The notes below the pieces were generated by a model. The model had not been told where the DNA came from, ran no database searches, and saw nothing but the letters and a program-made list of their open reading frames with translations. This document shows positions 29,519 through 63,427 of a DNA stretch of 64,000 nucleotides, piece by piece (position 1 is the first letter of the stretch; each line of letters begins with the position of its first letter). Source of the stretch: Marsupella aquatica. Its lineage: Eukaryota; Plantae; Marchantiophyta. Made by a program: the position numbers and the translations under genes. The stretch is from the NCBI GenBank assembly GCA_973895155.1, contig OZ316894.1, positions 18,514,805 to 18,578,804 of the forward strand, written 5' to 3'.

Positions 29519-30377
29519 AATGCATATGTTAAGCCGGATGTTGGGGTGTTACCACGAGCTATGCGCCAACACCTTGTGCAGGCCATGGAAGATTGGCGAC
29601 ATGCCTCTCTACCACCAGATGGCGATCCGGATGTTCCAGAGCAGGAACCAGATGCCTCCCAATCAAGAGTTGATGAAGATAGGGCAATGGATGACTTGAT
29701 GCACCAATTCTATGACATAGAGGATGGTGATCATGACATGGCTGATGGGGAGAACATTGAGGTCCCACTTCCACATCAAAAAGGTTCAAGGAGTTCAGCC
29801 TCCAAACAGTGGGAGGAAGCACGTCAACATGCGCAAACTCGGATATTTGATGGATCACGCTTGTCTCGTCTTTCAGCAATAATGTTGTTGTTGAACTTGC
29901 AGCAAAGACATGGAGCAAGCAACCTACTTCTTGATGATCTGTTTCGGACATTGCATGATTGTATCTTGCCAGAAGGAAACAACTTGCCAGACTCTTGGAA
30001 AGAGGCAAAGAAGGTGTTGAAGTCCATAGGTCTGCAGTACGAAGTCATTCATGCTTGCGTGAATGATTGCGTTCTGTTTAGAGGCACTTATAAAGTTGCA
30101 ACGTCATGTCCTACATGTGAGAAGCCTAGGTTTCGTGAGGACATGTTGACGGGAAAAGTCCCTCAGAAGGTCATGATGTACTTTCCTCTTATACCTCGTT
30201 TGCGCCACCAATATAGATGTGTTGAGTTGGCTGAGTATATGGTTTGGCATTCCCAAAATCGCTCAGATATGAGTTCACAACCACCCACCATGCGTATGAT
30301 GGTTGACTCCCCTGCAAACAAGTTTGTGGAGGAGAGATGGGGTGAGTTCCAAACTGACCCACATCATGTTCGCCTAG
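29519..30377 (+). pseudogene. CACTA-A TnpD transposase, 5' part (interrupted)
   Basis: LPEGNNLP, IHACVNDCVLFR, CPTC, YFPLIPRL, ...DPHHVRL| break at the insertion. Confidence 0.9.
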
Positions 30378-30427
30378 ATCAGCCTATTCATTAAAAGTGT
30401 ATTTTCTTTTGTTCACAAATCAGTCTT

Positions 30428-30520
30428 GAAATGTACACTTTCATGTCCCCAAATGTACACTTTAAGAAACCCAAATGTACACTTTTTGGTCTCTAAATGT
30501 ACACTTTATAGGCCAAATCA
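30428..30520 (+). repeat. Left subterminal repeats (aaatgtacactt) of element G
   Basis: Four copies next to the left TIR; same unit as at 50965-51290. Confidence 0.8.
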
Positions 30521-30782
30521 TATAAGTATTATATTAATAAATAATACATATTATATCATTTATTGATTCACAAAGAATAATAGGATAGAGATCATTATTT
30601 ATGAATTCACAAAGAATAGTAGGATAGAGATCATACTTATAAAAACATTTCAGCACAAATAAACCCTTGAATATGTGTGAACAAAATGACATAACTCCAA
30701 ATAGATTATAAAATAATATACAATTATCTCCAAATTTACAATGTATTTCTTCTATCTAAGGGGCTTAACATGAGTCATATCT

Positions 30783-31850
30783 CTAAACAAAGTGCTCCTT
30801 ACAATGTGTATTTGAGCACGTGCCCCTGTCTCCTTTACTATCTACCCTAGTGTCACGGTTGCAAGTCCCTTTATCTTCAGGGAGCTGAAACTTGGTGGTG
30901 TTGTTCCTAATGGCTATAATCTCCCGCAAAAAGTGTCTGGGATTTTCTCTATGCGGACCTGAATAGTCCCTTCCTACAAATGCTTTAGCAAGTGACGTGA
31001 CAAGTGCATCGTCAAGTTCTGCCTCAGGACGTAAACTACATATACGATGCTTCACGTTCCAAGGAATCTCATTGCTATTGAGGTCCAACACACTATGTGT
31101 AAACAGTGACTTCCAAATTTTTGTTGCACATCTCTTACTAAGTTGATCATAAGTAATTTCATTTTTTACCTTGTCTCTCTTTATGTGCAATAGAGACCAC
31201 AGTGGAGAGTTAAGAAGAAGATAACATCTAATGTCACTTGCATGGGATAGTTTCTCAAGACAAGGCCAAAGAATTGTTAGAAGAAAATTATCTCCACCAT
31301 TGGCATGCGTGTAGGGCACTGGAAATAGTCCGATCATGCTTGGGTTGGCAAATGCCTTAAGGGGGGAGTCATCCACAAGGAGGGTGTTGGTTTCATCATA
31401 TAGATTTCCAAATCCACTCCATACCACCCGAAAATCCTTCAGTAGCACATTTGCCTTTCCGTTTGTAATGTCATGCCTTTGAATGCCTGTGTCAAAGGCT
31501 TCCACTTGTGTGAATACAAACTTAAGTTTCAACCGCTCCTCAGCAGTGAACATCATGTTCAGCATTTTCACTGTTCAATGTACCCCAGCACATGTCCAAA
31601 TTGCAACGTCAAATCGGTCAAAAACCAACTTTAGAAACTCATGGAGCCCTGGCCTTTCTGTGTACATGCGACTAATTCCATTTTTTCTATCCCAATGCAC
31701 TCCACTTGGGATCACAACATTTCTGGATTTGCCCTTGCTTTGGAATTCAACTGAATCCCAAAGTATTTTGTTAAGATCCAAAATCAGCAATTTGCGCTTG
31801 ATGGAACAAGGTCTTGGTTCTGCAAGTGCAACAAATACCAATCTTAGAGA
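30783..31850 (-). pseudogene. FCP1/NIF-like HAD phosphatase-fold domain
   Basis: KLLILDLNKILWD...RPGLHEFL...FDVAIWT, in-frame TGA at 31575, ...LLKDF..VW...NTLLVDDSPLKAFANP. The DxD motif reads DLN. Confidence 0.75.
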
Positions 31851-32303
31851 TAAAACCACATTTGAAGTTTGGATGGAGATCATCTCTGTCAATCCAACAC
31901 AAGTGGCCAACCACAAAGAAAATATATCTGCATACTGATCAGATTCATTGAGAAACCGTAAAGAGGAGATGGATATTGATACTGATGCTCTAATTGTTAA
32001 ACTTGCCCAGAGAGGCATGACTTTGTGGTAGCTCACTTGAATTGAGACTCATAGGTCTTGGGTTCAACTGTTGTGGCTGACACTTCCCAACTATTGTGGC
32101 TGACTCTTCCCTTTCTGTGGGGTTTCACAGATTTCCCTTTAAAAATAAAAAAAATAAAAATAAAAAATTGTTAAACTTGAAGTATAATTATACAGACTAT
32201 ATTATATCAAATTGATAAGGTCACATCGCTCAATCTAGACCTTGGCTAACAATGCGATCCATATTCATCAATCAAGATATCATCACCGAGTTCTTGTTGG
32301 ATC

Positions 32304-34240
32304 TCATAATTGACATCGGAGGTACTCTCCTCTACCCAATAAGGTGCAGACCAAACCGGAGTTATCAATACTCCCATACTCAATGTGAATACTCAGAGTT
32401 TTTGAATGTCCTAATTTACGAAGAGCGCTTAGGACATTCAGTACAAGATAACCCGAATGGACAGTTATCATCACAACAATGGTAGGATTCCGTGGTAGCT
32501 CTACTATATATTGGAAGAGGACCAAAATCTCTACTTCAGTCCACTCTTTTTGCTGAAGTTGGTTGAAATCAACAATTGCAAGAGGGCATGTTGGAGATTG
32601 TTCTTCCAACGACTCCGGATCCACAGTCTTCATTAGGTTGTTACTAAAAAATGTGACCCACGGCTGGGTCCAAGAACTTGTCCCACCGCCAAACTTTTGA
32701 CAGTAAATATCATCTAGACGCATCACCAATGTCATTGGCAATATCTCACTCTCCTTTGTATGATTTGACTTCAACAAATTTGTCAACCATACATCGCCAG
32801 CTGCTCTTCGGCACCTGTTCAACTCCGAATCGGGACCCAATAATGGGAGGACTTCAATCACTTTAGCCCAATCAGTATCTGCTGGGAAGTGTTTTGGATC
32901 CTTCTTGAAGTAGTAATCTCCAATAAGAGACTTCAATTTGATCAATATCTTCACCTCCTTTGCAAACTCCTCCATCGCTGGAACATCTGACTTATTAGTC
33001 GGATCTTTCTTCAATAAAATCTGACCCGACTTCACCTTGTTCAAAATTCTGGTCAAATCTCTATTTGAGATTTCACCATCAAAACAACGAAACATGGCGA
33101 CGGTTATCGCCTTTTCGGACCTTTTGTTTCCCTGTGTACCAGCCCCATCAGGAAGTTTTCCATCAATCCACATCTGGCACACTAACTACCATAACTCGAA
33201 AAGATCATTCTCGGCAAAAAGTAACCAGTATACATTTTTCAAGTCTTTTCTCCCCATGGTCATCCTTGCCAATGCCAGATAATCCTACAGTCAAAAATTA
33301 GGGAGAATGTTGTAAGTTATCTACAATCAATGAGATTTGATAACACAATCGCTTGCTTGGACAGAGACCATCTCCGTCCAAGCCATAACCAAAAGTAGAA
33401 TGAAGTAAAATCTACAGAATGGAAGGTCTCACTCTTGGACAGAGACCATCTCCATCCAAGTCATAACCAAAAACATATTGAACTAAAATCAATGTAACGG
33501 ACGGTCACACTCTTGGACAGAGACCATCTCTGTCCAAACAAGAAAAATGTTTCTCACCTGAAATTTTTGACTCTCTTGGGCGTTTGATTTGTTGTCCCCG
33601 TGCTTTGGCTTTCTTGGTCTTCCAGTTTCAAGGAATTGTTTTCTTGCATGAACAATTGTATCTTTGAAGCACGATTGAAACACCATCGAAGAATTGATGG
33701 CATTTGATCGCATTGAGTGCTCAACCAGTATAGCCGATGGCGTAAGGTCTAACAATAATCTAGCCTTCCTATATTTTAACTTTTTTGCCAAAACTGTGAG
33801 CTTGGCATCAGTTTCGGCCCACTCAAGAACCCATTTGGCCGCCCTAGCAGAATGTTGCCCACTGACGGCAAGGAAAACAATCTCGCCTTTCTTCACTCCT
33901 GCAAGAAGGTCTTTGCGGTCGTTCTCCGTGCTGTCAAAATGAAGCAGCTTTCTAAGTTTTGGATTGTAAGGAAGAAGGTCCGCAACGTGAGGTTCATGTC
34001 TAGGGTTTTTCACCATGGATTCGACTATGTGCTTCACATGGGCACTGTTGAGCATCCTGTAACATAACCTTGCCGAAGCTGGATAAATTTTCTCCACTGG
34101 AATAGAAAATATTTCATTTATCCCAAAAGTATAGTACTGCTCTATTCTTTGGAGAACATCATTCCCTTCTAAGACCTTCTTCACCTCCGGGGCATCAAGT
34201 TTGTCTCCCTCATCCTCTGGGAGCATCTATACGTCCGTCG
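32304..34240 (-). pseudogene. ParB-like gene of element G, 3' exons (ParB domain + possible degenerate MTase region)
   Basis: YRMLNSAHVKHIVESMVKNP...FLAVSGQHSARAAK...HSMRSNAIN aligns by eye with E1 (HVENIKMLLMKNP...IGGNHGARAK). Downstream ILNKVKSGQI and PLAIVDF parallel E1 LLNRVIGKKI and LAIADIPY. Confidence 0.65.
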
Positions 34241-34243
34241 GAG

Positions 34244-34771
34244 TTGACCGCGCATGCTTGGGCTGAACAAGAAGTCTGGGAAGCAAAGGCACGGCTTGCT
34301 GATGTCCAATATGGACCTGTACTCAACAAAGGACAGAGCTCTAGAAGGCTGAAGAGTATGTTGGCTGAGGAGACGAAGCAACCAACCCCCATTCTGAAAG
34401 GGCTAAGCATGGTATTTGTGGAGGCGGGAATTGGAGAGGTTAAGTGCAAAGTGTACAAGTCCACGGTGCTTGACCTAGGTGGGACAGTGGAGGAGAATAT
34501 AACAGAGGACACCACTCATGTCATTACTAAGTCATATCCCAAAGCCTGCCGCAAGTTTGGGAAGGGAGACATTCGCTTTTATGTCATGTCCCATAATGTG
34601 TTTGTGGTTTCATATGCTTGGCTTGTGGAATCAGTAGCAGCTGGGAAGTGTCAAAACCCAATGGACTATGATCTTTTTGAGGCCTGGCCACGGAAGGGTC
34701 AGGATCCTTACAGAGAGGACTATGAGACAACAAGTGAGGAATGGGTCATTAGCGATTCTGAATCAGAGTGA
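34244..34771 (+). CDS. BRCT-domain ORF (5'-truncated), probable CACTA-B cargo
   Basis: ILKGLSMVF...LGGTVEENITEDTTHVIT...VVSYAWLVESVAAGK...DY matches the BRCT consensus. Confidence 0.75.
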   Translation: MTAHAWAEQEVWEAKARLADVQYGPVLNKGQSSRRLKSMLAEETKQPTPILKGLSMVFVEAGIGEVKCKVYKSTVLDLGGTVEENITEDTTHVITKSYPKACRKFGKGDIRFYVMSHNVFVVSYAWLVESVAAGKCQNPMDYDLFEAWPRKGQDPYREDYETTSEEWVISDSESE

Positions 34772-35303
34772 GGAGTAGTAGCATCAGTTTGGACACAAGT
34801 TTTTTTGTATAAATCAGATCATTGAAATAAATGTGATCTTTGAACTAATGTACCTTGTTATGGTTGGTGGCAGTTGGGCTTATTTTACTGTTGGCGGATT
34901 GTTGTTTCCTCCTGCCTGGGGGTGTCACTGTAAACGTACTGGGTGGGCTCAAATCTCGGCGGTGAGATATCTAATACCGCTCTCACACCTATGCCTATGA
35001 CTATACATGATTGGACTCTGATATGGTCATGGGTGTACATGCAGAGGCGGTACATTTGAGGACAGCTGTGGAGGTGGTGACACCCTCAAATATTGAGGAA
35101 TTTTGTGTCATTCACTTGACAATAGGTACACTACTCGCAAACCTGTTTTTTTCTTTTGGGGTGGTTTAGGGTTTGTGAGAATTTATTACACGTTATGTTA
35201 ACTCTTTTGGCACATACAGTCAGGGATATATGGAACACAAATACCACCATTAGGCATCCCTGTTCACTGCTGTCCATGACTGTAGAGCTTCCAGCCTGTT
35301 ACA

Positions 35304-38300
35304 ATGCACCCTGGTCACCACCCTCCCCAAACCCAGCCCAGGGCACAGGCACTGCCTTTGCATCATCCCACAAGGATATCACGCCATGATAATAAGCTTT
35401 GGCAGCGTGAAAGGTTACGAATCAGACTTTCAGGAGCCAGTAGGATGAGATGTCCTTGTGCAATCTGCCAAGGATCCCGTACCAGGGGTCTGAATGAGGT
35501 TTGGCGGCATATCGCGGTTCATGGAAGAGATCCACGACATCGAGTTTGGAATGATCCTGCAGAGGAAGATTCTTCCGACGAGGAGTGGAGGTTAGAATTT
35601 GATGCTGCCAATGCTGCAAGACGGGCAAGTGAGGTTCTGCCTGGTGCATTTGACAATGTTGTAACTGGTCTCTGTGGGTTGTCAGCTCTCCAACGGGATG
35701 GTGCTCAGGCAGCACCACGTGACGAAGGAATTCATGTGGAAGAGATGGTGAGAGACATCTTCCAAGACTTGGATGCATTTCACAATGGGCTGGACAACGA
35801 AGAGGATACGGCTGCAGATGCAAGTGTGCCCCCTGTCGAAGAGCCTCTTGATGAGTTTGAGATAGGGCAGGAAACCCCTGGGCATGATGAGATGTTTGGC
35901 TCTCCCCTACAAATACAGGAAGGCAGGAAGTCTTTGTACCCTGGTAGCAAATGTTCTAAACTGGGATTTGTCATCATGTTCCTGAACATTTGCGGCAACC
36001 ACAATGTCCCCAACGTTTTAGTTTCTGAGTTGTTGGCATTCTTGCGAACAACTGTGCTACCAGATGGTAATATTTTGCCCAAGAATATGTACGAGGCAAA
36101 AAGATGCATATCTAATCTTGGATTGAACTATGATTCCATCCATGCCTGTCCTGATGGGCATGTTCTTTTCAGAAAGGAGTATAAAGAATCGTTGACATGC
36201 CCTAAGTGTGGGAAGCACAGGTATCAGAACTCAGGAAAGTCTATGGTTCCCGCCAAGGTACTTCGTCATTTTCCACTCATTCCCAGACTTCAGCGGATGT
36301 TCAGAAGCCATGCCATCTCGGAGATGATGACTTGGGCAACTAACAAGAAAAGTGATGATGGGCTACAACGACATGCTGCAGATTCAAGGCAGTGGAAACT
36401 CATAGATGAGATGTATCCCGAATTTGTTGCTGAGCCGAGGAATGTCAGACTTGGGCTGTCATTGGATGGGGTAAACCCATTTGGAGACAAGAACAACAAA
36501 TTTTCGTGCTGGCCTGTAACTATTTTGAATTATAACCTTCCTCCTTGGATGACTACAAAGCGATTTTTTGTTCTGATGGTCCTACTGATACCAGGGCCAG
36601 ACAGTGCTGTATCTGCCAACATAGATGTGTTTCTGGCTCCCCTAGTGGAGGAATTGAGAAAGCTTTGGGAGGAAGGATTTCTCACATATGATGTCCTACA
36701 GAGGCTTGGGAGGTTAAACCCATTCATCCTTAGAGCCATCGTCATTCTGACTATAGCTGACTACCCAGCCCATGGGATGATATCAGGCCAAACAACAAAA
36801 GGATATTGTGCTTGTACTATCTGTGGGCGCAATGTCACCAGTGAGTACTCCAAAGCCCTGCAGAAAGTGATATACATGGGCCATCGTCGTTTTCTGAAGG
36901 CAGATCACCCTTACAGAGAAAGACAGGCACTGATTGCACACTTTGGCAATGACATTGAGCAACGTGGACCCCCGACACGAGTGACCAAAGAGGAGATCAG
37001 GCAGTGGGGAGCACTGAGGGATGACTATATCAAACGAGGGGGCAGGGAAGATAGAGTGAGTGATCCAATAAAGCGATATGGTGTAAAAAGACTGAGCATA
37101 TTGGACTTGGAGCTCAAGTATTGGAGGGTAAGCCTCTTGGAGTTGATGCTAATTGGGATACATGTTTTGGTTCAGAGCATGTGCATTCATTTCGAAGAGA
37201 GAGACTAAACTTGAGGCATTTGCTGACGCTTTTGCATTGCAACGGTGCAGGAGTTTGAGCCAAGCAAACATAACATTGATGTTATGCACATTGAAAAGAA
37301 TATTTGTGAGAGTCTACTCAGATTCTTGTGTGGAGAGAAAGACACTGGTTCAGTGAGATTGGATCTTGAACAGAGGGGAATGAAACCCCATCTTTGGTTG
37401 AGGCCACATGCCCACAGAGCTGATGTGCTCTTGAAGTACCAAGTGCCCTATGTTCTGACAGACACAGAGTGGGAACTATTTGTGCAGAGGTTGAGTTCTT
37501 TGAAGGTTCCTTCAAACTATGGCAGTGCTTTCAAGAAGCATATCATGACTAGAAAGCTTGGTAGTATGAAAAGCCATGACTACCATATGTTGATGCAATA
37601 GGTGTTGCCTTTATGCCTGAGGGGCCTGTTGCAGAAGCCTGTTCGTAATGTGATCATGCGACTCAGTGATGTGTTTCGTCGTATTTGTGTGAAGGTTTGG
37701 GATGAAACACACTTCCCACAACTGACAGAAGATGTCACTCAGGTGCTGTGTGACCTGGAGATTTATTTTCCTCCCGCATTTTTTGATGTCATGACCCACC
37801 TACTTGTCCATGTTGTGGAAGAGCTACACCAATTTGGGCCTGTGAGTGCTCGTTGGTTGTACCCTTTGGAACGGTACATGAAGGTACTCAAAGGTCACGT
37901 GAGAACATATTACAAACCTGAAGCAAGCATGGCTAAAGGTTACATCAAGGATGAGACTCTGGGATTTCTGACCGAATACATAGCACAATATGAGCATGTG
38001 AAGACCAGGGTGTGGAATTCTGATGAGGAGGAAGGGGTGATAGGTGAAGTACTGGAAGGGGCTGCAACCACAAAGAACCTGACCATATCTATGAGAGACT
38101 TGGCACATGACTTTGTATTACACAACACTGTGGTGATGGAACCCTGGATACAGTGAGTGCATACATGTGCTATAATTCAGTTCATGAGCTTAAATGTTGT
38201 GTGCGTGTGGTTTTCTCCTTCAGCCTGTTCATGTTTACCCAAGTTAATGCTGTGTGGTTGTTTGTTCAGGGAGTATGAGTCATTGAAGGCGGCCCATTCC

Positions 38301-39035
38301 ACTGCAGGAACAACTTTTCCAGGTTTCATGGAGTGGATCAGAGTGGCAATTAGAGAGCATCACGAGACCCACCCAGACATGGATGCAGACGTTTACCTAC
38401 TGTCTAATGCCCCTAGCCTGAAAGTGAAGACTTACAAACGGATGAGAGCATATGGGAATCACTTTCGAGTGAAGGATGGTGACAGTGCCTACAGGGTGAC
38501 GAATGACTGTGGGCTCATCACTGTATTTGAGCAACAGAGCCACAATCACGACAGGGCCTGGATGGAGATGGGATATGTGGGAGAATTAGTTGACATATGG
38601 GCTCTGGACTATGGGGCGGTGTCCAGTCCTGTGATTCTTATGAAAGGTTCATGGGTGCGGCAGGATTGGCTTGGTAACAGGGCTACCATGAAGAGAGACA
38701 ACGACGGTTTCTTGCTAGCCAATTTCAGAGGGAAATTGCCCGAATGGTCTGAGCCATTTGTGTTTCCCAGTCAGGTGGAGCAAGCTTTCTTCCTGGATGT
38801 GGAAGACTCCCCAGGTTGGCGTGTAGTGTGTCATAAACAGGCCAGGCAACGTCGGATGGAAGGATCAAACCTTGAGTTTCATTTACACTCTCATAGTGCC
38901 TTTGATCGTCGGCGTTCAGACCAAGTGCCTGTAGTTCATGATAGCGGGGACTTCATTCCTGTGACAAGGGTAGATGCATTTGCTGAAGGAGGCGAATTCA
39001 GAGATGCAGATGCCAACAGTGTGCCTGTGCCATGA
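35304..39035 (+). pseudogene. CACTA-B TnpD transposase
   Basis: CPCAIC..H, IHACPDGHVLF, RNVRLGLSLDGVNPF, ADYPA, DVMHIEKN, KSHDYH, FFDVMTHL, YPLERYM, EPFVFPSQ. Introns ~37128-37250 and ~38154-38269; in-frame TAG at 37599. Confidence 0.93.
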
Positions 39036-39189
39036 GTAATGTGAATTGTTTGCATGGACATTAGTGAGGGGAAGGATGTGTAATAAAGTAATTCTGAAGC
39101 AACACAGATGTATGGATGGATGCCTGGTCATTGTGGGTGCATTGTGTTATACGGGGTGACCATAGATGACATGTTTTTGTGGTCCAGTA

Positions 39190-42100
39190 GGATGGAACAG
39201 AGTGACACAGAGATGTGTGAGTATGAAAGGAAAGCTATGGAACAACGAGCAAACGTGAAAGCCAAAATCGCAAAACTGGATCTGGAAAAGGATGTGGCTG
39301 AATTGTAAGGGAACAATTCTCAACTACACCCCTCCGCTGAGTTTGTGTGACATGAATAGTTCAATGTCGCACTGAAATTGTGACTGTATTCTCATATTGG
39401 AATGTTGCAGAGCCACAGCATTTTCAAAGAAACAAAAGGAGTACGCAAGAAGGGTGACCAACACTATCTTTGGGCCTGTGCGTCGGAGTGACAGGTTGAG
39501 CAAGAAGGTGGTACCTACAATGGCAGAATGTGGAGATGACATGGATGCTGCACAGGTGGGTGCAGACACTAGACAAGAAGATGCAAATGATGAGTATTTT
39601 CCAGAGGAAATGGATGAGGATGGGGGTTATGAAGATGAATACATTGCAGAGCAGCCCCAAAAGAAACAGGTAAGTAGTTTTCCCAACAAGGTTTTGAGTT
39701 AAAAACTCTTATTTGGAGGTTTCATATGTTCAGTACTACACATATGTACCTTGCTTAGTTCCTGACATTGTAGTTGGTGATGTGATGCAGCGTCCTGCCA
39801 GTTCTGTTTTGCCTTCAAAGCCTGTGCATGCACCATACCAGCAGGGGGGGCTGACCTCTGATCAAGGTTGGCGAGGTGGTAGTAGTGGTAGATCCCAGGC
39901 TGGTGCCCAATACTATGGCAGGGGGCAAGCTCTAGGTTATGCCCGTGGTAGAGGCAGAGCAGGTCCAAACCCACAGTCTCATGGGTTTGGACGTCCACCT
40001 CAACCATGGGGATGTGAGTATATATCTATATGCCAGTTCTTTGTGAAGGCATGGCACTCCTGAATTTCAGACTGCATATCAATTTTTGACATTGTTTGGG
40101 ATGTATTGGATTCAGACAACATGAAATTCTGTCCACCTACCATTGCATGCAGATTCTGCCCAACCTGATTGGGCAAATGCTAGTAATGATCAGTTCCAAT
40201 GTCCACAAGGACAGACATGGGTTGAACCAGGTTGGGAGGATGGTGGTGGGTCGTGGAATGAATAAGGTTGGGAAGGTGGTGAAGGTAATTGGCAAGGATA
40301 TCAAAATACAGTACCTACAAACGCTGGAAGAGGGGCAGGTAATGTCTGATCTTGTTAGCAATGGAAGAACTCATTATATCTGGAGTCCATTCACGTGGGG
40401 GGGATTCTGCACATGTATAATGATAGGGAATGTATGTGTGCAGGTTGGACAGTCGAACCATCGACTCAAGTATTCACTAATGCCCCTATGCAGATGCAGC
40501 ACGGAAGGGGGACAGGTATGTTGGTGAATGTTCAGTTATTTTCCTACAGTTTGTACTTAGTTTTCAGTACATATGTTTGCACACACATACCTAGAAAGTG
40601 ACATCATTCGGCCCCTGTACTAGGCTGGACAGGTGGTCTAGGGCGCAACAATTTCAGAGTGTAGTCCTTGCACAGGCATCTACAGGCAGAGCTACAGGTA
40701 TGTATGTTTGAAGAATTTTTCTTGAAGTGAAGCATTGAATGTTGCCGTCATCCATTCTGCTGTATGTAGTTCTCAAGCATGAATGGCATTGTATTTTCCC
40801 AGGTGGCTTCAGAACCCCAGGTAGGGTGAATGAAGGGGTGGCCAATACAACGCCCAGTACTACCGAGAGCAGTGCACGAGGGGAGGTGACAAAGAAAGGG
40901 AACGTAAAGTTGAATGAGAGACAATGGGTGGATGCTGAGTGTCCTCGCAAGAACCGATGGCATGCTAATTTGAAAGCTGAAGTATTGCGTTGGTTAGATG
41001 TGAGTGTTATTAATTTTAAAAAACAGCATCCAAAAGATTGGAAGACTGTATGTGAAAATGTTGCTGCCAAATGGAATTATGTGAGCAGTGATGATGGCGT
41101 GGACATAGGTTGCCTAGAGAGTACAGCAGGTAAAATCATCAAGCAAGAGAGGTGGAGAATGCATAAGGCTTGGAAGGAAGGTGGGGAGAAGCCAGATATG
41201 CCTCCACCAGCCAGTTGTGATGATAAAGTGTGGGCAAGGTTAGTAGCTTATTTTGTAACAGATGCTTCAAAAAAGAAGAGTTCACAGATGACCGAGGCCA
41301 GGTTGAGTGTTCAGAACCCTAATCTGACAGGAAGGACCGGCACTGCACCGACAGCTAAACGTTTGGTAAGAATGAATGGCCTAGCTATGTAATTTATGCT
41401 ACACTATGTACTGTTTTTTAGTGTAAACCCATACATGTAAACTTTGTTTTGTAGTGTACGTTCCCTGAATATTGATCGATAACTTGTGTTTGCCATGCAT
41501 GTGCAGAAAGCCCAATTGGGGCAAAGCCCTTCAAAAGAAGAGTTGAGGGCTGAAATTGTGAACACCCAAGCTCAAGAGGGTGCATCTGAATCCTCCAAGC
41601 ATGTAATTTATATGAGTTCTACTTGGTAATTGAATGACCTGCGTTGAATTTCAGGTGTACACTGTATATAACATTGATTGTGCATATATTGCCCAACATT
41701 TCATATGGAGTGATTGAACCTATACCCCTGTGTCATGTAGGGAGGTGGATCTTCAGTTACAGAGATAAGTGGTCATTTGAAGGCTGTCGAAACATGTCTT
41801 CCAGAGATCAATGAACGTTTGAATTCATTGACTGACTTGTTCCATGTGAACTTCAAGACATTAATGGAAGCTGTTGTGTCGGTGAGAGATAAAATTGATT
41901 CCAATTCTGCAGGAGTTCCACCATCACCACTTGAGGTGGCAAAGTCGATGCACTCTTCTGGCATGCCAACGACATGTAGGCTTGAAGGTAAGGCCTTTAC
42001 AACTGTGTGGGATATGATTATTAAATGTATAGTTTGAATTGACATTGTTTGTTGAATGTGTTATTTTCAGTAACATATATTGTGGTTGTTGTGTCCATAG

Positions 42101-50964: not shown

Positions 50965-51290
50965 TTGGTACACTTTTTAGGCCAAATGTACACTTTGTTG
51001 CACTCAAAGCTACACTTTCTAGACCAAATGCACTTAAATGTACACTTTTTAAGCCAAATGTATGTTTTTTTCACTCAAATGTACACTTTCTAGGCCAAAT
51101 GTACTCAAATGTACACTTTTAAAGCCAAATGTACCTATTTTGATGTTCAAATATACACTTTTCATTGCCCAAATGTACACTCTTTAGGCCAATTGTACAC
51201 TTTTCTATCCCCAAATGTACACTTTTCATTGGCCAAATGTACACTTTTTCAAGCCCAAAAGTACACTTTTCATTGCCCAAATGTACATAA
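50965..51290 (+). repeat. Right subterminal repeat array (ccaaatgtacactttt) of element G
   Basis: About 14 copies, now separated from the right TIR by the P-like insertion. Confidence 0.85.
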
Positions 51291-52660: not shown

Positions 52661-54591
52661 GGTGTCGAGAGTGTTGCATTGCTGCTTTCTAAAACGGGAG
52701 CTGCTAGCTTGCTGAAACGGGAGGTGGCTACTGCAGGGAGTGTTGCGATATCTCAAACCGGAGTGCCAGGATTGGAGCTGCATTGCTGCGTTGCTCAATC
52801 GGGAGGTAGGCGCTGCCTACTTTGACGATCGTACTTGCTTGCTTGCTACTATTTGACGCCCAAATCTATCACGCATGGCACACCTAGAGTCGATCTGGTA
52901 GCGGTCATAGACGAGGAAGCACCTGATCTGCCCGTTTAGCTTTTCAACTATAAAATTCCTGTTCTGAGCTCCGTGAATGGCGATAAGCTCTTTGAGTATT
53001 TTGTCCTCCAGAGCTCGCCATGCCCTCGCAGATAAGGTTTGGAGCCACTGCTGAGATCCAGCTCCAACTTCCCAGCCGAATACTAGCTCAGTATTGTCGT
53101 CATTTGTCTCGACGTTGTCCATACTCATCTCTCCTTCTGTGTCCGCATCGACGACTTGACGCACATGTTTTTTGGATGCATCGTTAGAGTAACCGCGAGT
53201 ACAGGTCTCCAATGATTGCACTTGCCATGATTGACCACCTTACATGATCTCCATCCATGGGCTGGACCCCAGGAAAAAAATCATGTAACTTGACTTCTGT
53301 CGTCCCCCACACACCCGCACAAATCTGGTTCTCTATTACATGCCTTGGTGTCCCGTTGGCTGGTTCCTGCAATTTTCTTTAAGTCATCTAGAAGAGAAGA
53401 CTTCTTTAAGTGTTTACTCAGCCAGGGGGGACCACAGCCTCCAGCCATACTGGGTGGCGGGCCTGGTCAAGACGTGGATGACGCTCGTGCTTGATTTTAA
53501 ATTCTCTTTTGTTTCTCAAGCTTCTGGGCAAGGGCATTACCATTCTGGATTCTGAACTTGATCCTATTCAGGTTAGCTATTCAGGTCTGTTGAGCGATTG
53601 GGTTATTATTTTATTGCTGTAGTAACATGCATGGCCAATTGGTTGTCTTCATGTAATGGGAAGTTTTTGAAACTTAGAAATTGAATGGTGGTTTCAATTT
53701 TGTTCACAGGTTGCAAAAGGAATTGTAGAGGTTGTCATCAGCGCTTGCAGCAGTGAGCACCAACACTTGCGGTGAAGCAGTTTGCTAGAACACATAGTGT
53801 ACCTAGTGAATTGTAAGTTGCCTGTCATTGCACGTCTAATCGTCTGGCCATTCACCGAGTATAAAAAAATAGTGCCATGGCTATATTGGGCATTACATTA
53901 GAAGCGAATTATGAGAAGCTCCTTCTGCAGCATCCAGATGAATGTTGCTGGTGTGAACCTTGTGTCAAGTGCAGGGTTGGTGATGGGAATTTTGAATGGT
54001 TCCATTGCTTCTGCTTGAAAATGCGTGGAAGGCTTGTTACTAGGACATACATGGGAAAGCATGGCAAAGTTGTCACACGTCGTTGGAAGTGCTCTTGTAT
54101 AAGGCCAACCATTTGGCCTCAAAATGAGTGTCTTTTACGCAAGATTGTCATCCCGGACACGCTTGACATTGTAGTCCCTGATAGTATTCCACATTCAACT
54201 GAGCTTGATATTGTAGCCCCAGATAGTATATCAGATCAAGCTAAGGTTACAACCCATGGATGCTTGACATTGTAGTCCTTGATAGTACATGGATGCGTTG
54301 TTCATATATGACTAGGCCTTTGTTTGCAAGGCTGCAATTGTACCATCCATGATATATGAGAATATTTTTCATTCCCATTATGTGGCAAAGTTTTGCAAGC
54401 TGGCATTGTATTTATGTATGTCTTGGTTGGTGGGTGTTCAGGTTGCACTGTGTAGTTGACTTCATCTGGGAGGGAGGTTTGCAGATCATTGGAGCAGGTG
54501 CTATGATTAACCTTATCTTTGTCTATGGATTGCTCACTATCATCATGTCCCCCTCATATGTGATGTGCTTTGTGATGATTGCAGTTGAACC

Positions 54592-55266
54592 ATGCCGACA
54601 AGGACTTCAAACATAAAGAAAGCAACACAGTCCTCTGACAGAGGAGCCTCTTTGGAAGAGGTATTGCGTATTCCGTTGTTCTCTGAGCAAGAGATTCTAC
54701 AAACTAGCCCTCATGTTTGTGCAATTTGTGAGCATGGTGGGAAGTTGGTAATTTGTGATGGGCCATGTCACAGGCAATTTCATTATGTGGTTGGAGATGA
54801 AGCCCCTAATGACTCTTGCCCCTGTGTAGTCCTTCCCCTCCATCATGGAGGGAAGCCATGGTTTTGCCCAAATTGTAACCAGGACCAGGCCATGTGTTAT
54901 GGGTGCCGCACTGTGGGACCGTCACCTACAATTGTGCGAAAATGCTCTGATCGTTTTTGTGTACGATTTTATTGCTTTGGGTGTTTGGTAGCTGATGCAA
55001 AGTCCTGCCCACTGCATACATGTGTGACATGTTATCAGAGTCTTGAGGGTCAGATGGTCAAGAACATGGTACAATGTCTACGATGTCCAAATGCCTGGCA
55101 TACAGATTGTCTCCAGATGATCAAAAGCAAAGGGTTCGCTCATGATAGGGACATCTGGGACCATGAAGCACATGGACAACAGCGACAGATGTTTTATTGC
55201 CCCCGTCATCCTATTGATCCACACCTCAAGACTCCAATCAGGGACCACATTTCATGGCTCCAATGA
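54592..55266 (+). CDS. EDM2/NSD-like tandem PHD-finger protein (cargo)
   Basis: CAICEHGGKLVICDGPCHRQFH...CPNC...CYGC...C...C..FY...CPLHTCVTC...CLRCPNAWHTDC...FYCPRHPIDPHLKTPIRDHI. The last motif matches the EDM2-type HxIDxxLxTPxRDHI. Confidence 0.8.
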   Translation: MPTRTSNIKKATQSSDRGASLEEVLRIPLFSEQEILQTSPHVCAICEHGGKLVICDGPCHRQFHYVVGDEAPNDSCPCVVLPLHHGGKPWFCPNCNQDQAMCYGCRTVGPSPTIVRKCSDRFCVRFYCFGCLVADAKSCPLHTCVTCYQSLEGQMVKNMVQCLRCPNAWHTDCLQMIKSKGFAHDRDIWDHEAHGQQRQMFYCPRHPIDPHLKTPIRDHISWLQ

Positions 55267-55761
55267 TCTGAATAATGAACAAACCTATTACTTAGGTTTC
55301 AACGTCTTAGTGGGGTATGAGCAAGGCACATACTTAAGGTGCATCATGGGTGGTAGTACCCAATTTTATTAGTGTTGACATTTTGTCATAATTAAGGTCA
55401 CTAATAGTGCTGCATTTTGATGAGCAGAAGCACTAAACTTCGGGAATTGTTAGAAAAGCAGGCGAAAAGGATATTTTGTCCAAAGATATTTTATCCAACT
55501 TTAGCGGTATATCATGATTTTCACTGAATACATTTGCATGTATGATGGATTGCATTATAAAGTGTTTTGGCCTATTAGCACTTCTATTGTTAAATGTATG
55601 CTGACATTATGTACATTACATGAGAATGTGTATGTTGTCATTGCATCTCTTGAAGATCCTAATGTGTTTCCCTTGTGTGTATTTCAAATGTATTTGTGCA
55701 GGTCTTTCTGTTATCAACTCCAAAAGCAATGGTGCTATGCATGTTCTAGATTTGTATTGCA

Positions 55762-58700
55762 ATGGCAGCCCCTAAACCCAACTCTGTTAAATTAATACGC
55801 AAAGTTGGGGATGACAAGGCTGATTTACCAATTTGTGTTTTGTCATTCAAAGAAGGACACACCCTACATGATTTTAGGGCTCGTATTGCCTCTACTCTAG
55901 ACTTTGACTTTGATTTTTGGGATGAGAGACTTCCTGGTCGAGTGAAACTTGTACATGAGAAATTAATTGATCTGTCTGAGCTGGATGGAAGAGTTATTGT
56001 TGTACAACAAGAACTTGGAGATGGTGGGAGGATCCCACCAGTACCCTGTCATCCTTGCACTCCTGCATCATTGGGTCCAAATACTGGGACACCACAACTG
56101 GGGCCAACGGCACTAGCACCCTCCCCTGTAAGGGCTTCTTTTGAGTCACAATTGATGGGAGATGTCCCATCAAAGCTATGGAAAGATGAGTGGATGAGGT
56201 TAGAGAAATGGGTACATAAGAAGGGTTATGGTGATCACAATTGGAGAATTCGTACCTGGGATGAGGGGACAGATGTTCGAGGGCATCTGGAGTGTCTTGA
56301 ATGTAGGGAAACTTATGGCAATGCAGACAACTCTCAGAACCCTAAATCCATCTCCAATTGCTTTAGTAATTTTAAGACCAAACACTTGGTCTTCAATAAG
56401 CACAAGGATAACTATTGTCGGAGAAGGGGCATTCCTTCTACTTTGGTTCAGGTAGCAGACATCTCTGAGAAGCCAGAATATGATCATGCAGACGCCATCA
56501 AAGTAGGTGTTGAGATAGTTCAACGATTGAATGCTGAGCTTGGGGATGATGGCAAACTATTCTCTATTGTTCCTGATCCCAGTACTCCTGAGTATGTAAA
56601 CAGGTCTTTCCTGTTTAAGGTTCGATGTACTGTCTGTGGAATGCTTCACACTGACTTGTGCCCCAAGAAGCTTACCTTGGAGCCCAATTTGAGGACACAC
56701 TTAGTGAGTCGAGATCACTTGGATGCATTGGAGACTAGGCATGACACAAAAATGCTTGCCTTGAGGTCTGGGAAGAGGGGCAGGCCAAAGAGGACTGATT
56801 CTAGGGACCTACATCCTGGTCAGAGCGGGATTTTGAAGTTCTTTAAAGATGATGGGTCCCGGACAGGCAGCAGTTCAGGTTCAGGTTCAGGTGTGTGTGA
56901 ATCTGTTGATCTTGGTCTGAGTTTGCTTTGCTGGGGATTATGGGTAGAGAGAGGTGTGCCTCGACTGTTATGGAAGGGTATATCTTATGATATTTCTGGC
57001 ATTTTAGATGATCAGTCTGGGGGAATTACATGGCATTGTGAGCCAAGTTGTTGCTTGGATGTTTTCCATCCAAGTAGAGAGAGTGTTGTGAGTATAGCAG
57101 GCTGTTTTAGACACAAGGATTGCTTGAGGTTATCACAGAATGGAGGAGGATTTGAAAATCTAACTTGTAGTGAATGTGATTCTATAACACTAGAAGATGA
57201 TTTTCGTGGACGGGTGCACAGGGAAGCGGAAGCAGTAGTCCACAGAGGGAGCCGAACCACTGCTGGTGGTATACGTTTGGATTATTTGACCAACACAGAG
57301 TTAAGAGATCAAGTGCACAACCTGAACTCTGTGCGACGAAAAGAGCGTTGGTTGTTAGCTTTGCAGGCTCAGAAAGTATGTGCCTTGAGCACCAGGAAAC
57401 GAAAACTAGAGGAGTTGTTAGGAGTTGCAGCAGACAGGAAGGATTTGAGATTGTTTCTTAGGAGTATTTTGAATGGACACAGGAATGGTGCATTTGGTGG
57501 TAAGGAGGGTTTGTGGGATTTCTTGAAGGATGTAGCTCGCAATTTAGGCAGGAAGCCAAAAGGTAATCGTTACAGTAATAGGACTCGAGCTATTGCTCAG
57601 GCTATGTTCCAATTTGGGGGCCGTCAAGTTGCTCATTGTTTTGCACGAAACTTGACAGCCCCTAGCCTTGTGACCCTAAAACGTGATAGAGCAAAACTCA
57701 CACCTTTTCGAACCGGGTTACGGAAGGAAACCTTTCAGGAGATTGCTAGAGTGTTGTCTGCTGCAAAGCACTCATTGGGCATTGAGGGGGATGTGCCTGT
57801 TATCTTTGCTGAGGATGAAACAAGGATCAAAGAACGCCCTAGGTAATTGGAACTGGACATTTTTCCAATTGTTTTTTTAATGACTTTACAAGTAGCACTT
57901 GGCTGGAATTGCTGTGATATTGAAAAATTGCATGTCTGTGTTTCAGGTGGGAGGCAAAGTATGATACTCTCATTGGTTTCTGTGGACCTTCAGAGCAGCA
58001 TGTATGCTCCTATGGTTTGGAAATTCTAGTTGGTGAAGGTGATGAGGGGTATGATAAAATTGTAAGTACATTTGAACAATGCCCCAAGTGCATGTATGCC
58101 CGAGTTGTGATTGTGAATCCTCTGCATGAGTCCTTACCTAAATTGGCTGTGTGTGCACTTCCAACTTGTAATAAGTTCACAGCTTCTTGGGTACGAGAGC
58201 ATTGGGTCCAGTTAAAGGCTTTTTGGGATGAATATTGTAGAGCTATGGTAGGCCCTTTGCTTGGACATGCTAGTGATGGTGATGCACGTCGCCGAAAGCT
58301 GATGCTGGAAGATTACAGAGGGCAGAATGGATCATACCCAAGGTACGGAGTTGGGTGGGAAGGGTGGACATACTCTGTTTCAATTCTACCAAATGGAGAT
58401 TTGTATGGCTTTGGTGACCAAGACCAACCTCATAATGGGAAAAAGATGATAAACCCCTTAGACAGAGTGTCTTCTTTACTGGTGCTAGGAGATCAACATG
58501 CATCTTTATCTTATGTAGCTAATGTCTACAATCATTATCCAATTCATGAACATGGCATGGCTTGGGATGATGTGAATAGGACTGACCGGCAGAATTGGGC
58601 AGGTCCACAACGAATAGCAGCAAGAAGAGTGCAGCAATGTCTGAAAGATATGTATGAGAGGAGAGATGTACAACATGAACGAAGTTTAGGAACTCAGTTG

Positions 58701-60338
58701 TACTTGGAGATTTGTGCAGATTACTTAGATATTTTCTTTTCTCCAGTTCATGATTTGAGGTCCCGTATTGTGTTAGCATCCAAGGTTTCATTCTTTCTAC
58801 GTTTGTGGAGATTGTGGTTGAGGTTTGGTGACCATTCAGTGGGTGGGAACTTTGCAGCACACACTGAGAAAGACATGATGTCTATTCAGGCTTTTCATGA
58901 TGTTAACATGTCATGTCATTTCATTGTGCTGTTAATTTGTGCCTTTCGAGATAAGTTCCCACATCTAGGTGTTCCCTTCCACTTGCTAGGTTCAGATTGT
59001 TGTGAGATTTTCTTCAGCAAGGTAGGAGGCATGAGTGGCCATGAGCGGAATTATGATTTTGGCTCTCTATTGGATAGTGCTGTTGGACTGAACCGGCTTG
59101 CTGCCCTAGAATATGGACCAGAAGGCTTGAAGATAGGTCGTTCACATAAGAAACAAGATCATGTATGGGGGAAGATTCATCCTATAGGGGAAGGGGAGGA
59201 AGCACCAAATCTACTTGACTATTCTCTCATTGAGACTAATGAATTAGTGGTTGCAGCCCTTAAAGAAGGTTTTGTTGCTGCTAAGGATCTTATGCATCAA
59301 TTGCAGATGTCTCCACGAAGTTCCTTACCAGCAGCTAGAAAGAGATGGTGGACATGTCCTTGGGTTGTGGAAAGTGAGACCTGGCCACTAGAGGTGGTTC
59401 TGAAGGAAGCAATTGTTTGCAATGATTCTGAGGAGCAAGTAGAGCACCAACCACCAGACATAGGTCCTCGCCCAACTGGAGATTTTCATGAATTGGAAGA
59501 TCCTGAGGATGATCTGAATAGAATAGATGCATGGTTAACAGAACCAGATCCCATTGTTGTTCCTGAGATGCATTCAGATGATGTACACAGAGATGATATA
59601 CAGTTTGATGTAGACCCCTCAGATGAGCTTGAGACATTAGGTCATGAAGTTCGGCATGTGTTTGGATCAGTTGTCCATGCTGTAACTAATGTACAGAATC
59701 GTACCAAGGTAGTGCCTACTGTTACTTATGAAGGCAAGGTGATTTACAAATCCACTCTGGTAAGCCAGTTGGTAGGAAATCCGCATTTGTCAAAAGATAG
59801 GCTGACAAGGGTGAAACAAGTGCTATACTATAGTACTGGCAAGAGAAAAGTGCAAGAAGTCAATCCTAACTCATGTTTTGTTGATGTTGGCACTGATTGT
59901 GCAATTGCATTTGAGTCTGATGATAGTCCTGCTCCAAGTACTAGATCTGGAAAAAGAAAGGGAGGAAAGAATAAGGTTGTGGTGGAGGCAATCTCAGCAG
60001 GTAAGAAATATTTTTGGTTGGGTCGGATTGTCCAAATGAGACAGAAGTATGGCAGTAGGTGGGGCAATTGTCGGTCACCAATTGATTTGATGGATAGGCC
60101 AACTCCACTTGCAGGGCAATCAGGTAACATTTGTGAACTGTTGTTAAATTGGTATAGTCCTATTGGTAAGAGCAAAAGTGAATTCAGATATGATACCACT
60201 GATTTGAAATGGATGGATATTGAAATGGTCATTGCTAGTGTTAGTTTAACCATGAAAGAAGGGGTTATGGATCGTATCTATGTGTTGGATCCAATAGATA
60301 GACGTGCTTTGGATCAGTATCTTCAAACAATGGTATGA
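55762..60338 (+). CDS. P-element-like transposase, two exons (55762-57842, 57947-60338), ~1490 aa, apparently intact
   Basis: IFAEDETRIK (D), GHASDGDARRR (D), DQPHNGKKMIN (DxxH), GSDCCEIFFS (E); N-terminal C2H2-like fingers and AT-hook KRGRPK. Spliced frame has no stops. Confidence 0.78.
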
Positions 60339-60350
60339 ATATCATGTTAC

Positions 60351-60430
60351 TGTTTAGTTTTTGAGAGTCTGTATATATGTTTTATTTTGTTGTTTAGTTT
60401 TTGAGAGTCTGTATATATGTTTTATTTTGT
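60351..60430 (+). repeat. Perfect 40-bp tandem duplication in the transposase 3' UTR
   Basis: tgtttagtttttgagagtctgtatatatgttttattttgt x2. Confidence 0.9.
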
Positions 60431-61026
60431 TAATATTAGTGGGTGTAGTGGGATAGGATAGGGGGTGACGGATTGGCAACTTGAGATCCTTTCTCAATTA
60501 GGGGTTCAATTCCCCTCCGTCACATGTTACATCTCTCAACATAAGTTTTAAATGGAGTATGGATGGAGCATGGGATTGGTGATCAATGGGTGGAATGGAT
60601 TATTTATGTTGTGACCTTAAAGGCCATCCCACTTATGCACGTAAGGTTTATATTGGGATGACCTTTTAGGTACACAATATAAATGATGCATTGAAATGAT
60701 CAAAGTTTAAGGTCGACAAAGGTGCAAGAACTGTTGCAGGGCGTGCCATGTCTGACATACGACTTCACAAGGTACTGACATAGACTTATCTTTTCTTTCT
60801 AGGCATTTTATATTGATATGTGACACTTTACTTCACAAATTATAGGGGCAATACAATTTGGATTTTAGACTCTTAGAAGAAAGAAAGAGGGAGGAAAAAA
60901 AATTTTCAACTTAATAAGTATGGGGGTCTAGGCATGAAAACGTCGCAGGTGATGGGGGGGTCCTCCATATAGTGAGACCCCCGAGCATAAATCAAATAAT
61001 AATACACTTTTAATGAATAGGCTGAT

Positions 61027-63427
61027 CTAGGATTGACAGCGGATGGCATCAGCCCATTTGCACTAGCAGGTAAGGCCCAACCATATTCACTATGGCCAGT
61101 GGTCCTTACTAATTACAACATCCCTCCATGGATGTCCATGACGAAGGGTCATTTGCTCTTTTCCATGATTATCCCTGGTCCTAAGCAAGTGAAAAAAATT
61201 GATGTGTACTTGCAACCATTGATTGAGGAGCTACAAAAGCTTTGGAGGGGTGTGGATTGCTATGATGGTCGAGTGCAAACGGGGGGCTTACGTCAAGAAT
61301 TTAAGTTGAAGGCCATTCTTATGTGGACCATACATGATCTTCCAGGTATGAATCTTTGTTAAATTATCCCTTCCCATAGCTAGGCAACCGTACCTAGCAT
61401 ACTTTGTTATGTATTGAGTTAGCTAGGAGCACATATATCTTTTAATAAACTTATTTACTTATGCATGGGATATATATTTATATGCAGGGTTTGGATATAT
61501 TTATGGCCTGACCACATCAGGATATCGAGCTTGCCCAACTTGTGGACCTGATTTGGAAGGAATAGCGCGGCCAAAGTCAAAGACCTTGAGGAAGATAGTG
61601 TATATTGGTCACACCAAGTACCTCCCTCCAGACCATGATTGGAGGAGAGACCCCTTTTTATATGACACTGAGGATGGCAACCAGACAGACGACCACAACC
61701 TATTCCAAAAGATCCTGCATATTGGAAAGAGGTATGGGAGAGAGTATCTAATCCAGATGACCCATTGCAGTATGCCCGGTGTGGCATGACTTGTTTGTCT
61801 GCATTGTCACAACTGCCTTATTGGGCTGAGATGCCATTTAACCATTTATTTGACCCTATGCACATTGAGGGAAATGTTGGGAGGTCCTTGATTCGCCACC
61901 TATACGGAGAGAAAGACAACAACTGGAGAGAGAGTTGTGAAGAGATGGGGATGCATGGCCCTCATGGTTTTTGGCCATCTATGGATCCCGATAATGCCCC
62001 CCTCACTATTCATCCTCCTTGGGTTTTGACACGAGGTGAGCGGACTGAGTTTCGCAAATGCATAGGGTCTATGCGATTTCCTACAGGGTATGGTGCCAAT
62101 CTTCACAAGGCATTTGGTGGACTTGACTCTCCAAAATGGCCAGCTTTCTTGAAGACCCATGATTATCATCGCTTATTGCAACATGTTATTCCAGTTGCTA
62201 TTATTGGATTGGGTAGTGAGGATCTTCATGATGCCCTTTGGTCGTTGGGTAAGTTGTTGAGATGGGTGTGTCAAAAAGAGGTGAACGAGGATGAGGTTGC
62301 AGCAATGGAGGTGTTTGGAGTGGAGGTTGTGTGCAAACTTGAAAGGGCCCTTCCTCCTTCATTTTTTGATGGTCAGGTTCATTTTCTACTACATCTAGTG
62401 CATGAGGTTGGTATTGCAGGCCCTGTACATTGTCGTTGGATGTCCTACTGGGTAGAGCGGTACATGGGAGTGATGAAGTCCTATGTTTCAAATCACGCAA
62501 GGGTGGAAGGTAGCATTGTTGAGCGTCATCTTGCATGTTTTATTGTACAAATATTATTGCTACACTTGATTCAAATGCTCCAAGGGGGTGGATAGATGAG
62601 GCATCAAGAGAAGCAGACTATGAGGATGACCGTTTGACAGGTGCAAAGGGAGAACGGCTTCTTGACCCTAGTGAGCGCACTAAACTCACTGCATTCATGT
62701 TGTATAACTCTCCAAAGATTGTTGGGGAGTGGACCCATTTTATGAGGAGGATAAGCACAATAGTCGACGACCACACTTATTTCCCAAATTCCACATGTAC
62801 ATGAAGGGGAAGTTGTTAGAAGTGGATGCCTTGGTGGCTGCTGGGGAGAGTGTATCACACTTCCCAATGGTGACTGATAAGTTGCGCACCTTGGTTCATG
62901 GACCTCTACTTACAAATACAACCAGGACTGCCATGTGGTCCAAGGGGAGACACTTTCGTGTGGAACGACTTGATGACAAGAGGGCAGCTACACAAGATTG
63001 TGGGGTGATGGGTTGGTTCACCCAGGATTCTGTAAGTAGCAGATCTGACACAAATCCCATTCGTTCTACTATAGCTCACTATGGAAAGATAGAGGAGATC
63101 CTTGTTGTAAAATACCATGCGCATACAACATTGGAAGAGGTGGTGCTGAAGTGCAAATGGTTTTGGATGAATCTTGTTGGCCACAATCGGACATGTGAAG
63201 AGGATGCTTGCGGCTTCACATGACTGAAGACGGCTGTCATCAGCTCAAATTGGAGGGCCTCAGATCCTTTTGCATTTCCTCATAATCTTGAGCAGGCATT
63301 CTATCTCCCTTATCCAGATGATCCTGAGTGTTCCATTGTAATGCCTTACATTCCTCGATCCCGATCCATAGTCCAAGAACAGCCAAATGTAGTTGTTGTG
63401 GAAGATTTGGAAAATGAGAACAACTAG
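61027..63427 (+). pseudogene. CACTA-A TnpD transposase, 3' part
   Basis: LGLTADGISPF, YSLWPVVLTNYNIPPW, IDVYLQPLIEEL, TIHDLPG, DPMHIEGN, LKTHDYH, FFDGQVH, YGKIEEI, DPFAFP. Intron ~61346-61487; frameshifts and stops. Confidence 0.92.

Follow-up and report, generated by a model that had tools for sequence, protein, structure and literature searches.

The 64,000-nucleotide stretch of the Marsupella aquatica (Marchantiophyta) genome analyzed here (assembly GCA_973895155.1, contig OZ316894.1, positions 18,514,805 to 18,578,804; hereafter the window, whose coordinates we use throughout) contains a 30.6-kb insertion at 30378-61026. This is very probably a multi-copy DNA transposon with 26-bp terminal inverted repeats (TIRs) and a 4-bp target-site duplication (TSD), likely of the Sola1 group, with a DUF7869 protein as its predicted transposase and a likely ParB-methylase cargo gene. 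Its ends read ATCAG…CTGAT, and CTAG is the duplicated target. The size of the insertion is the result of ordinary nesting, and the coordinates of its parts are collected in Table 1.

The insertion divides the Tnp2 transposase gene of a CACTA element (CACTA-A), as a preliminary description had proposed. The two TIR arms are complementary without mismatch over exactly 26 bp, for which the expectation by chance is ~6e-7 per 64 kb, and a copy of CTAG borders the element on either side. When 30378-61026 is excised in silico together with one CTAG, a single open Tnp2 frame runs across the junction. A search of the window for further copies of the TIR found none beyond this pair. We compared the window with contigs from public sequencing runs, aligning five of the six; run X2, which contributes a small share, was left out. 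The left-end comparison covers the runs other than X5 and X2, with 72 contigs aligned from X4 and 107 from X3, and its junction counts are among the loose-end rows listed. The empty CACTA-A allele, whose existence the preliminary description had suggested checking, is present. One 1,336-nt X4 contig joins 61881-61027 (1-856 of the record) to 30377-30320 (853-910 of the record); the two matched parts overlap in the four letters of the TSD only, so that CTAG is single. Runs X1 and X6 contain the same loose end behind 30377. Depth in X4 is 15-18 for contigs with a single flank against 363-431 for two interior contigs, roughly suggesting that the outer element is present in tens of copies. A set of 10 X4 and eight X3 contigs matches the left end for its initial ~39 bp, breaks behind 30416 and then goes directly into subterminal repeats. 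These contigs are a sister or non-autonomous subfamily.

Two further elements are nested within the insertion. CACTA-B is bracketed by a GCA direct repeat (34252-34254 and 43753-43755), and its removal restores the frame of a minus-strand cargo gene, whose homologues P0092 and P0093 align across both sides of it. A left boundary near 34229 was rejected, as it does not restore the frame that a boundary at 34255 does. CACTA-B has lost the beginning of its BRCT gene along with the left CACTA terminus, yet the 3-bp repeat is exact at both ends; a left terminus matching the right one was sought and not found. The second nested element has TIRs beginning CTCGGGG and a transposase-like gene of ~1,500 aa that found no match in Pfam or the PDB. 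We presume from its motifs that it belongs to the P group; 8-bp TSDs such as it has are also produced by hAT elements. Among the literature matches listed we found no account of P elements in land plants. Right ends free of the P-like element are present in X1 and X4 (an element-free allele), and these tie the transposase-bearing core to both TIRs. The association of the DUF7869 gene with specific termini, proposed earlier, is borne out, and subtraction of CACTA-B and the P-like element leaves a core of 11,448 bp where ~11 kb had been estimated. Among the X4 pieces listed, the P-like element differs at four of 3,872 letters, CACTA-A at 13 of 1,276 and one piece of the core at 11 of ~383. The P-like element is very young by this comparison and, having the fewest differences, is likely the most recent insertion of the nest.

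The core contains a single ORF (open reading frame) with a match to a transposase-type family in Pfam, in keeping with the earlier claim that this is its only transposase. The scan covered nine of the 11 ORFs of at least 120 aa, the remaining two being antisense overlaps, and ORF 48227-50719 matched DUF7869 with E 8e-43. Apart from one frameshift near 48404, at which position an X4 contig carries two extra letters that give an open frame, the protein aligns over its full length with a homologue of 1,250 aa. A homologue search retained 91 of 6,412 candidate proteins at E 1e-10. The nearest relatives are liverwort proteins. Named homologues come from Calypogeia fissa, at 66% across two thirds of the query, and from Riccia sorocarpa, Physcomitrium and Ceratodon. 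A FastTree phylogeny of 79 core sequences (midpoint root; selected from 109 of 249 proteins plus two window ORFs with both motifs, redundant ones removed) places the protein beside Calypogeia (0.84), within a clade (0.999) that also holds Riccia, Physcomitrium and Ceratodon. The DUF7869 profile reaches 13,662 representatives at E 0.001. DUF7869 proteins are annotated as hypothetical in the databases, dozens of them in R. sorocarpa, and the term was not found in the literature searched.

The catalytic motifs of the DUF7869 protein are H-D-K-M-D, D-N and G-H-T-H-E-D. In an alignment of 33 rows (32 from the homologue set and the other DUF7869 ORF of the window) the aspartate triad is near-invariant, with D120 in all 29 covering rows, D285 in 32 of 32 and D327 in 32 of 33. 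The histidine beside the third aspartate is arginine in this copy alone. Sola1 transposases are of the D-D-D type. An AlphaFold model (mean predicted local distance difference test score, pLDDT, 81.7) was compared with known structures (VIA), and DDE enzymes, either transposases or integrases, fill all of the top 22 rows; the best match is Mos1 (Z 7.7, root-mean-square deviation 3.4, 163 aligned), tied with retroviral integrases. The protein is therefore predicted to have an RNase H fold with a D-D-D triad, and we infer that it catalyzes transposition. Residues 570-709 of the model (window ~50260-50680) weakly resemble BAH, chromo or KOW domains (Z 4.5-5.3, with BAH at Z 5.3), and on the model the C-terminus could possibly be a chromatin reader. 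With its frameshift and His-to-Arg change, the DUF7869 gene of this copy is, to judge from its reading frame, dead.

The preliminary description of the core stood as regards the transposase, and overlooked a cargo gene split by CACTA-B, a NIF-like gene and arrays of palindromes. The cargo gene lies within the TIRs on the minus strand, in three segments, divergent from the transposase gene in a head-to-head arrangement. The middle segment resembles DUF3723 clusters of the ESM Atlas (score 0.96), and we take DUF3723 to be ParB-like. It also matches the ParB-like ORFs of three related elements weakly in a profile-profile comparison (E 0.0047, with 0.51 for a reversed control). The 3′ segment aligns with P0249, a homologue from Calypogeia, at 33311-32364 (43%) and 32368-32216. 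Relative to P0249, ~420 codons are absent near 32366, and its residues 347-768 have no match in the window. The N6_N4_Mtase match of P0249 (E 6.5e-5, below the Pfam cut-off at 23.4 vs 26.7 bits) falls within the stretch deleted here, and the position of the methylase catalytic motif of the cargo gene looks degenerate. The Calypogeia homologue also matches phrog_3008 (E 2e-4). As far as its sequence indicates, the cargo gene likely combines a ParB-like part with a methylase domain of the N4/N6 type that is degenerate.

Two families of short repeats occur in the core. A 13-bp motif is confined within the 64 kb to the two subterminal arrays, with four copies at the left and 10 at the right just inside the P-like insertion. 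A 23-bp palindrome was counted at a threshold of at least 16 of 22 matches to a consensus taken from these same repeats. All 23 copies are in the core and none are in the nested elements or the remaining window, and five shuffles gave 2, 0, 0, 0 and 0. Eighteen of the 23 sit between the cargo and transposase genes, and the palindromes as a set reach from within the one gene to within the other.

A scan of a genome collection found 13 related loci, nine of which were screened for TIRs. Two, L014 and L017, are complete elements with AAC-starting TIRs. Their TSDs (TTAG and ATAA) are non-palindromic, and the 4-bp length is therefore unambiguous. In each an opposite-strand ORF lies upstream of the transposase and matches the window's other ParB-like ORF with E 2e-11 to 3e-11. 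Both sit on long contigs that look eukaryotic although labeled as bacterial metagenome-assembled genomes. Besides these and locus L007, no convincing TIR pair was found at the screened loci. A scan of viral contigs with alignment A1 gave 104 pattern matches and no confirmed relatives. When 20 nt of the TIR were used to scan metagenome contigs, six matches came up in which homology ends at 20-22 nt, and these we take as chance.

The element shares with the Sola1 group its predicted D-D-D RNase H transposase, as noted above, and its TIRs, 4-bp TSD and likely AT-rich targets (PMC3845634, PMC6839031). Sola elements have already been reported from plants (PMC3845634, PMC6839031), while the insect Sola1 elements measure 1.5-2.8 kb (PMC3845634). 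The closest parallel, compared by description, is Sola1-1_Ec32 of the brown alga Ectocarpus, likewise a giant element with a 4-bp TSD, A-starting termini and an accessory ParB-like plus N4C/N6A methylase gene opposite the transposase strand (PMC12477816). It differs in its termini (AACCG there, ATCAG here), in its TIR (282 bp and imperfect there, 26 bp and perfect here) and in its core (21.5 kb there, 11.4 kb here); our element, whose host is a land plant, has a NIF-like gene in addition, and its methylase part is degenerate, with half of it deleted in this copy (PMC12477816). By analogy the Marsupella element likely works like Sola1-1_Ec32, a design already known from the brown alga. Nested insertions and pseudogenized transposases are common in the giant elements of Ectocarpus, and giant, nested Sola1 elements with 4-bp TSDs have been published (PMC12477816), so that the novelty implied by the preliminary description was overstated. 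The literature matches listed contain no description of a DUF7869 element family or of ParB-cargo Sola elements in land plants. ParB-like accessory genes are not restricted to Sola. PAG3, found in Plavaka (EnSpm) elements in the red alga Bostrychia, lies beside tandem inverted-repeat arrays and has been proposed to bind its own element; these elements belong to another superfamily, and PAG3 has a 2-oxoglutarate-oxygenase domain in place of a methylase-like one (10.1101/2025.02.11.637652). ParB-helix-turn-helix-fused methylases occur in chlorophytes and chytrids, in an account whose accessible text does not mention the type of element described here (PMC4738411).

The elements with DUF7869, the H-D-K-M-D and G-H-T-H-E-D motifs, A-starting TIRs and ParB-methylase cargo might instead constitute a fourth Sola group of their own, which we think unlikely. 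ATC or AAC termini together with ParB-like cargo recur in our element, L014, L017 and Sola1-1_Ec32, the profile reaches thousands of representatives as noted above, and the TSDs CTAG, TTAG and ATAA differ from AWWT. The TIRs of the insect Sola1 elements, moreover, start GGACC or GACC, and AWWT/AWDT is the target quoted as the hallmark of Sola1 (PMC3845634). Against separation, the DUF7869 protein groups with those of Physcomitrium in the well supported clade described above, and the flank consensuses of our element fit AWWT. The Repbase entry Sola1-1_PPa, which we take to be an element of the same moss, is also relevant here. It is the best match of the Ectocarpus element (PMC12477816). We therefore retain Sola1 as the likely assignment. 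Sola3 elements have a TTAA target and GAG termini, and were rejected given the CTAG site, varied flanks and ATCAG termini found here. Sola2 shares a 4-bp AT-rich TSD and can capture cargo (Fanzor1), but its motifs, compared by eye, are D-F-x-E-N, S-D-G and A-T-S-H-G-K (PMC3627910), and membership was rejected on this difference.

It might also be argued that the TIRs define a non-autonomous carrier moved by another enzyme, with the DUF7869 gene a passenger or a further nested insertion. That the gene is dead in this copy, and that the subfamily breaking behind 30416 has only the first ~39 bp in common with it, would fit such a carrier. An internal TIR or TSD pair around the DUF7869 gene was looked for and not found, however, the palindromes extend across the cargo and transposase genes alike, and the relatives have the same gene pair within their TIRs. 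We regard a passenger as very unlikely, and the DUF7869 protein as the element's own predicted transposase.

The length of the TSD requires closer argument, since two versions had been put forward, CTAG or a TA duplication with GATC termini as in a Tc1/mariner-like element. Five more bases are complementary beyond the TIRs, so that this single site is symmetric and fits TA as well as CTAG; Mos1 is moreover the best structural match, although it is tied with retroviral integrases and no mariner-type Pfam family was matched. Other copies decide the matter. Were the ends GATC and the target TA, every copy would share TA+G and the match would extend as far as 30375. The match instead breaks off before 30378 in 10 of the 72 X4 and seven of the 107 X3 contigs. 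Six listed pieces from X1, X4 and X6, some of them probably one locus in two runs, end their match at 30378, and the sole listed piece that begins at 30377 is an internal duplication variant. Together with the unambiguous 4-bp TSDs of the related elements, this makes a Tc1/mariner-like TA insertion highly improbable, and it was rejected; the element's ends are ATCAG…CTGAT, with a TSD of 4 bp. Consensuses of the flanks (n=10 for X4, n=7 for X3) end ATAT and AATT. They are AT-rich and compatible with the AWWT quoted for Sola1, weakly so at an agreement of 0.48-0.49 and with G-ending flanks excluded by construction. An assembly artefact among repeats can be set aside as the least probable explanation of all, for although each of the four elements has multiple copies and the listed contigs all fall short of the full stretch, the three nested junction pairs have exact direct repeats of 4, 3 and 8 bp, and two of the three restore reading frames, as misjoins would not.

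Several observations weigh against our interpretation of the insertion as a Sola1 element with a ParB-methylase cargo. The related locus L007 has a TIR pair (3,744 bp) without a matching TSD. Our own insertion site is CTAG rather than AWWT, and the flank consensuses, of low agreement, come from two runs of one study. Membership of Sola1 is judged from TSD, triad and layout. No structural match of the transposase reached a Z of at least 8 in VIA, and Foldseek with the same model returned nothing at E 0.001. As to the cargo, the protein had no notable ParB match in Pfam, PHROG or NCBIfam, a four-sequence profile misses the related ParB-like ORFs at E 1, its structural model has a pLDDT of only 40, and the Calypogeia homologues of transposase and cargo carry non-adjacent accession numbers. 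The left boundary of CACTA-B is set by the 3-bp repeat and frame restoration, its left terminus being absent. Lastly, no listed contig or read covers the whole 30.6 kb.

Table 1. Features of the nested insertion in the Marsupella window, and two complete related elements
Feature	Position	Strand	Remarks
CACTA-A Tnp2 transposase, 5′ part	29519..30377	+	Frame resumes at 61031 after in-silico removal
TSD, left copy, CTAG	30374..30377	.	Single copy in bridging contig
Left TIR, 26 bp, begins ATCAG	30378..30403	+	Flanks of other insertions join at 30378
Left subterminal repeats	30429..30507	+	13-bp motif x4, 22-bp period
NIF/FCP1-like phosphatase gene	30783..32048	-	Pfam NIF E 3e-7 and 1e-5 on two ORFs; in-frame stop near 31575
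Cargo gene, 3′ part: helical region and first half of degenerate N4/N6 methylase-like domain	32216..33311	-	P0249 alignment
23-bp palindromes x3	33358..33536	.	Between two cargo coding segments, likely intron
Cargo gene, middle part, likely ParB/DUF3723-like	33555..34251	-	56-57% to P0092, P0093; stop 34227-34229
CACTA-B, 9,498 bp	34255..43752	+	BRCT fragment, Tnp2, DUF4218, DUF4216, Transposase_24; right CACTA terminus only
Cargo gene, 5′ part	43756..44699	-	N-termini of P0092, P0093, P0101, E 1e-20 to 4e-18
23-bp palindrome array x6	44736..45071	.	Cargo gene 5′ end
23-bp palindrome array x12	46140..46786	.	Upstream of transposase gene
DUF7869 (Sola1-type) D-D-D transposase, predicted	46951..50719	+	Frameshift near 48404; His to Arg near 49514; C-terminal region weakly BAH-like
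Right subterminal repeats	50968..51287	+	Same 13-bp motif x10; strand as at left end
P-like element, 9,692 bp	51294..60985	+	15-bp perfect TIR; 8-bp TSD 51286-51293 / 60986-60993; PHD-finger ORF, large transposase-like gene
Right TIR, 26 bp	61001..61026	-	Perfect complement of left arm
TSD, right copy, CTAG	61027..61030	.	Direct repeat of left CTAG
CACTA-A Tnp2 transposase, 3′ part	61031..62595	+	Transposase_21 and DUF4218 (Pfam)
L014, complete element, 13,750 bp	L014:1831-15580		Non-palindromic TSD TTAG; AAC-starting TIRs
L017, complete element, 10,907 bp	L017:2868-13774		Non-palindromic TSD ATAA; AAC-starting TIRs

These results suggest how the element could operate. The enzyme likely binds the TIRs and the 13-bp subterminal repeats and excises the element by cut-and-paste; insertion would follow through a staggered cut of 4 nt, for the most part probably into AT-rich targets. 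The copy described here landed at CTAG within the CACTA transposase gene, disabling it. CACTA-B lies within the cargo gene and the younger P-like element within the right subterminal repeats, together adding ~19 kb. By analogy with the proposals for Bostrychia PAG3 and Sola1-1_Ec32, the cargo protein may load on the element's own 23-bp palindrome arrays and so regulate or shield the element. Because of the frameshift, the His-to-Arg change beside the third aspartate, and the stop and deletion in the cargo gene, this copy cannot mobilize itself, and could move only in trans.

The window contains a second DUF7869 element (112-6687), which falls in another lineage of the tree. Its transposase gene (3542-6687, minus strand) and a gene with ParB-like and N6_N4 methylase parts (947-3376, plus strand) lie tail-to-tail, and the latter gene has one in-frame stop at 1757-1759. 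The methylase domain is above the Pfam cut-off (30.8 vs 26.7 bits) and keeps a motif that we take to be DPPY-like, and on sequence an active methylase is more plausible for this gene than for the cargo of the nested element. The cargo gene of the nested element gave no significant pairwise BLAST match to the ParB-methylase ORFs at 947-3376. A separate palindrome family accompanies the second element (at 3476, 6751, 7438 and 7754); the ends of this element were not found. Just upstream of the CACTA-A transposase, a SET-domain ORF (28585-29409, Pfam E 0.003) is probably CACTA cargo, placed where BRCT sits in CACTA-B. A Copia element (15634-20151) with 156-bp long terminal repeats that are 99.4% alike and an L1-like element (22146-27495) with DUF4283 and a zinc knuckle are ordinary neighbors in a transposon-dense region.

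One broader idea is speculative, and we think it rather unlikely to hold as a whole. Bryophytes might harbor a giant, ATC/AAC-ended Sola lineage, a distinct group within Sola, equipped with a DNA-recognition and chromatin kit. The parts of this kit would be a ParB-like protein with a disarmed methylase domain acting at an internal parS-like palindrome array, a phosphatase of the NIF/FCP1 type and, on the transposase, a BAH-like reader. If true, this would be a prokaryote-derived system of self-protection or targeting in a land plant, and would let even broken composites of 20-30 kb go on moving in trans.

The termini, the 4-bp TSD and the anatomy are now fixed for a bryophyte branch of the DUF7869 proteins, and for its genes the annotation as hypothetical can be replaced by one as transposases. 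The element likely extends to a land plant a ParB-methylase cargo design that has been published from algae. The 23-bp palindrome restricted to the core is a candidate binding site, with which the self-binding proposal, made here by analogy, would become directly testable.

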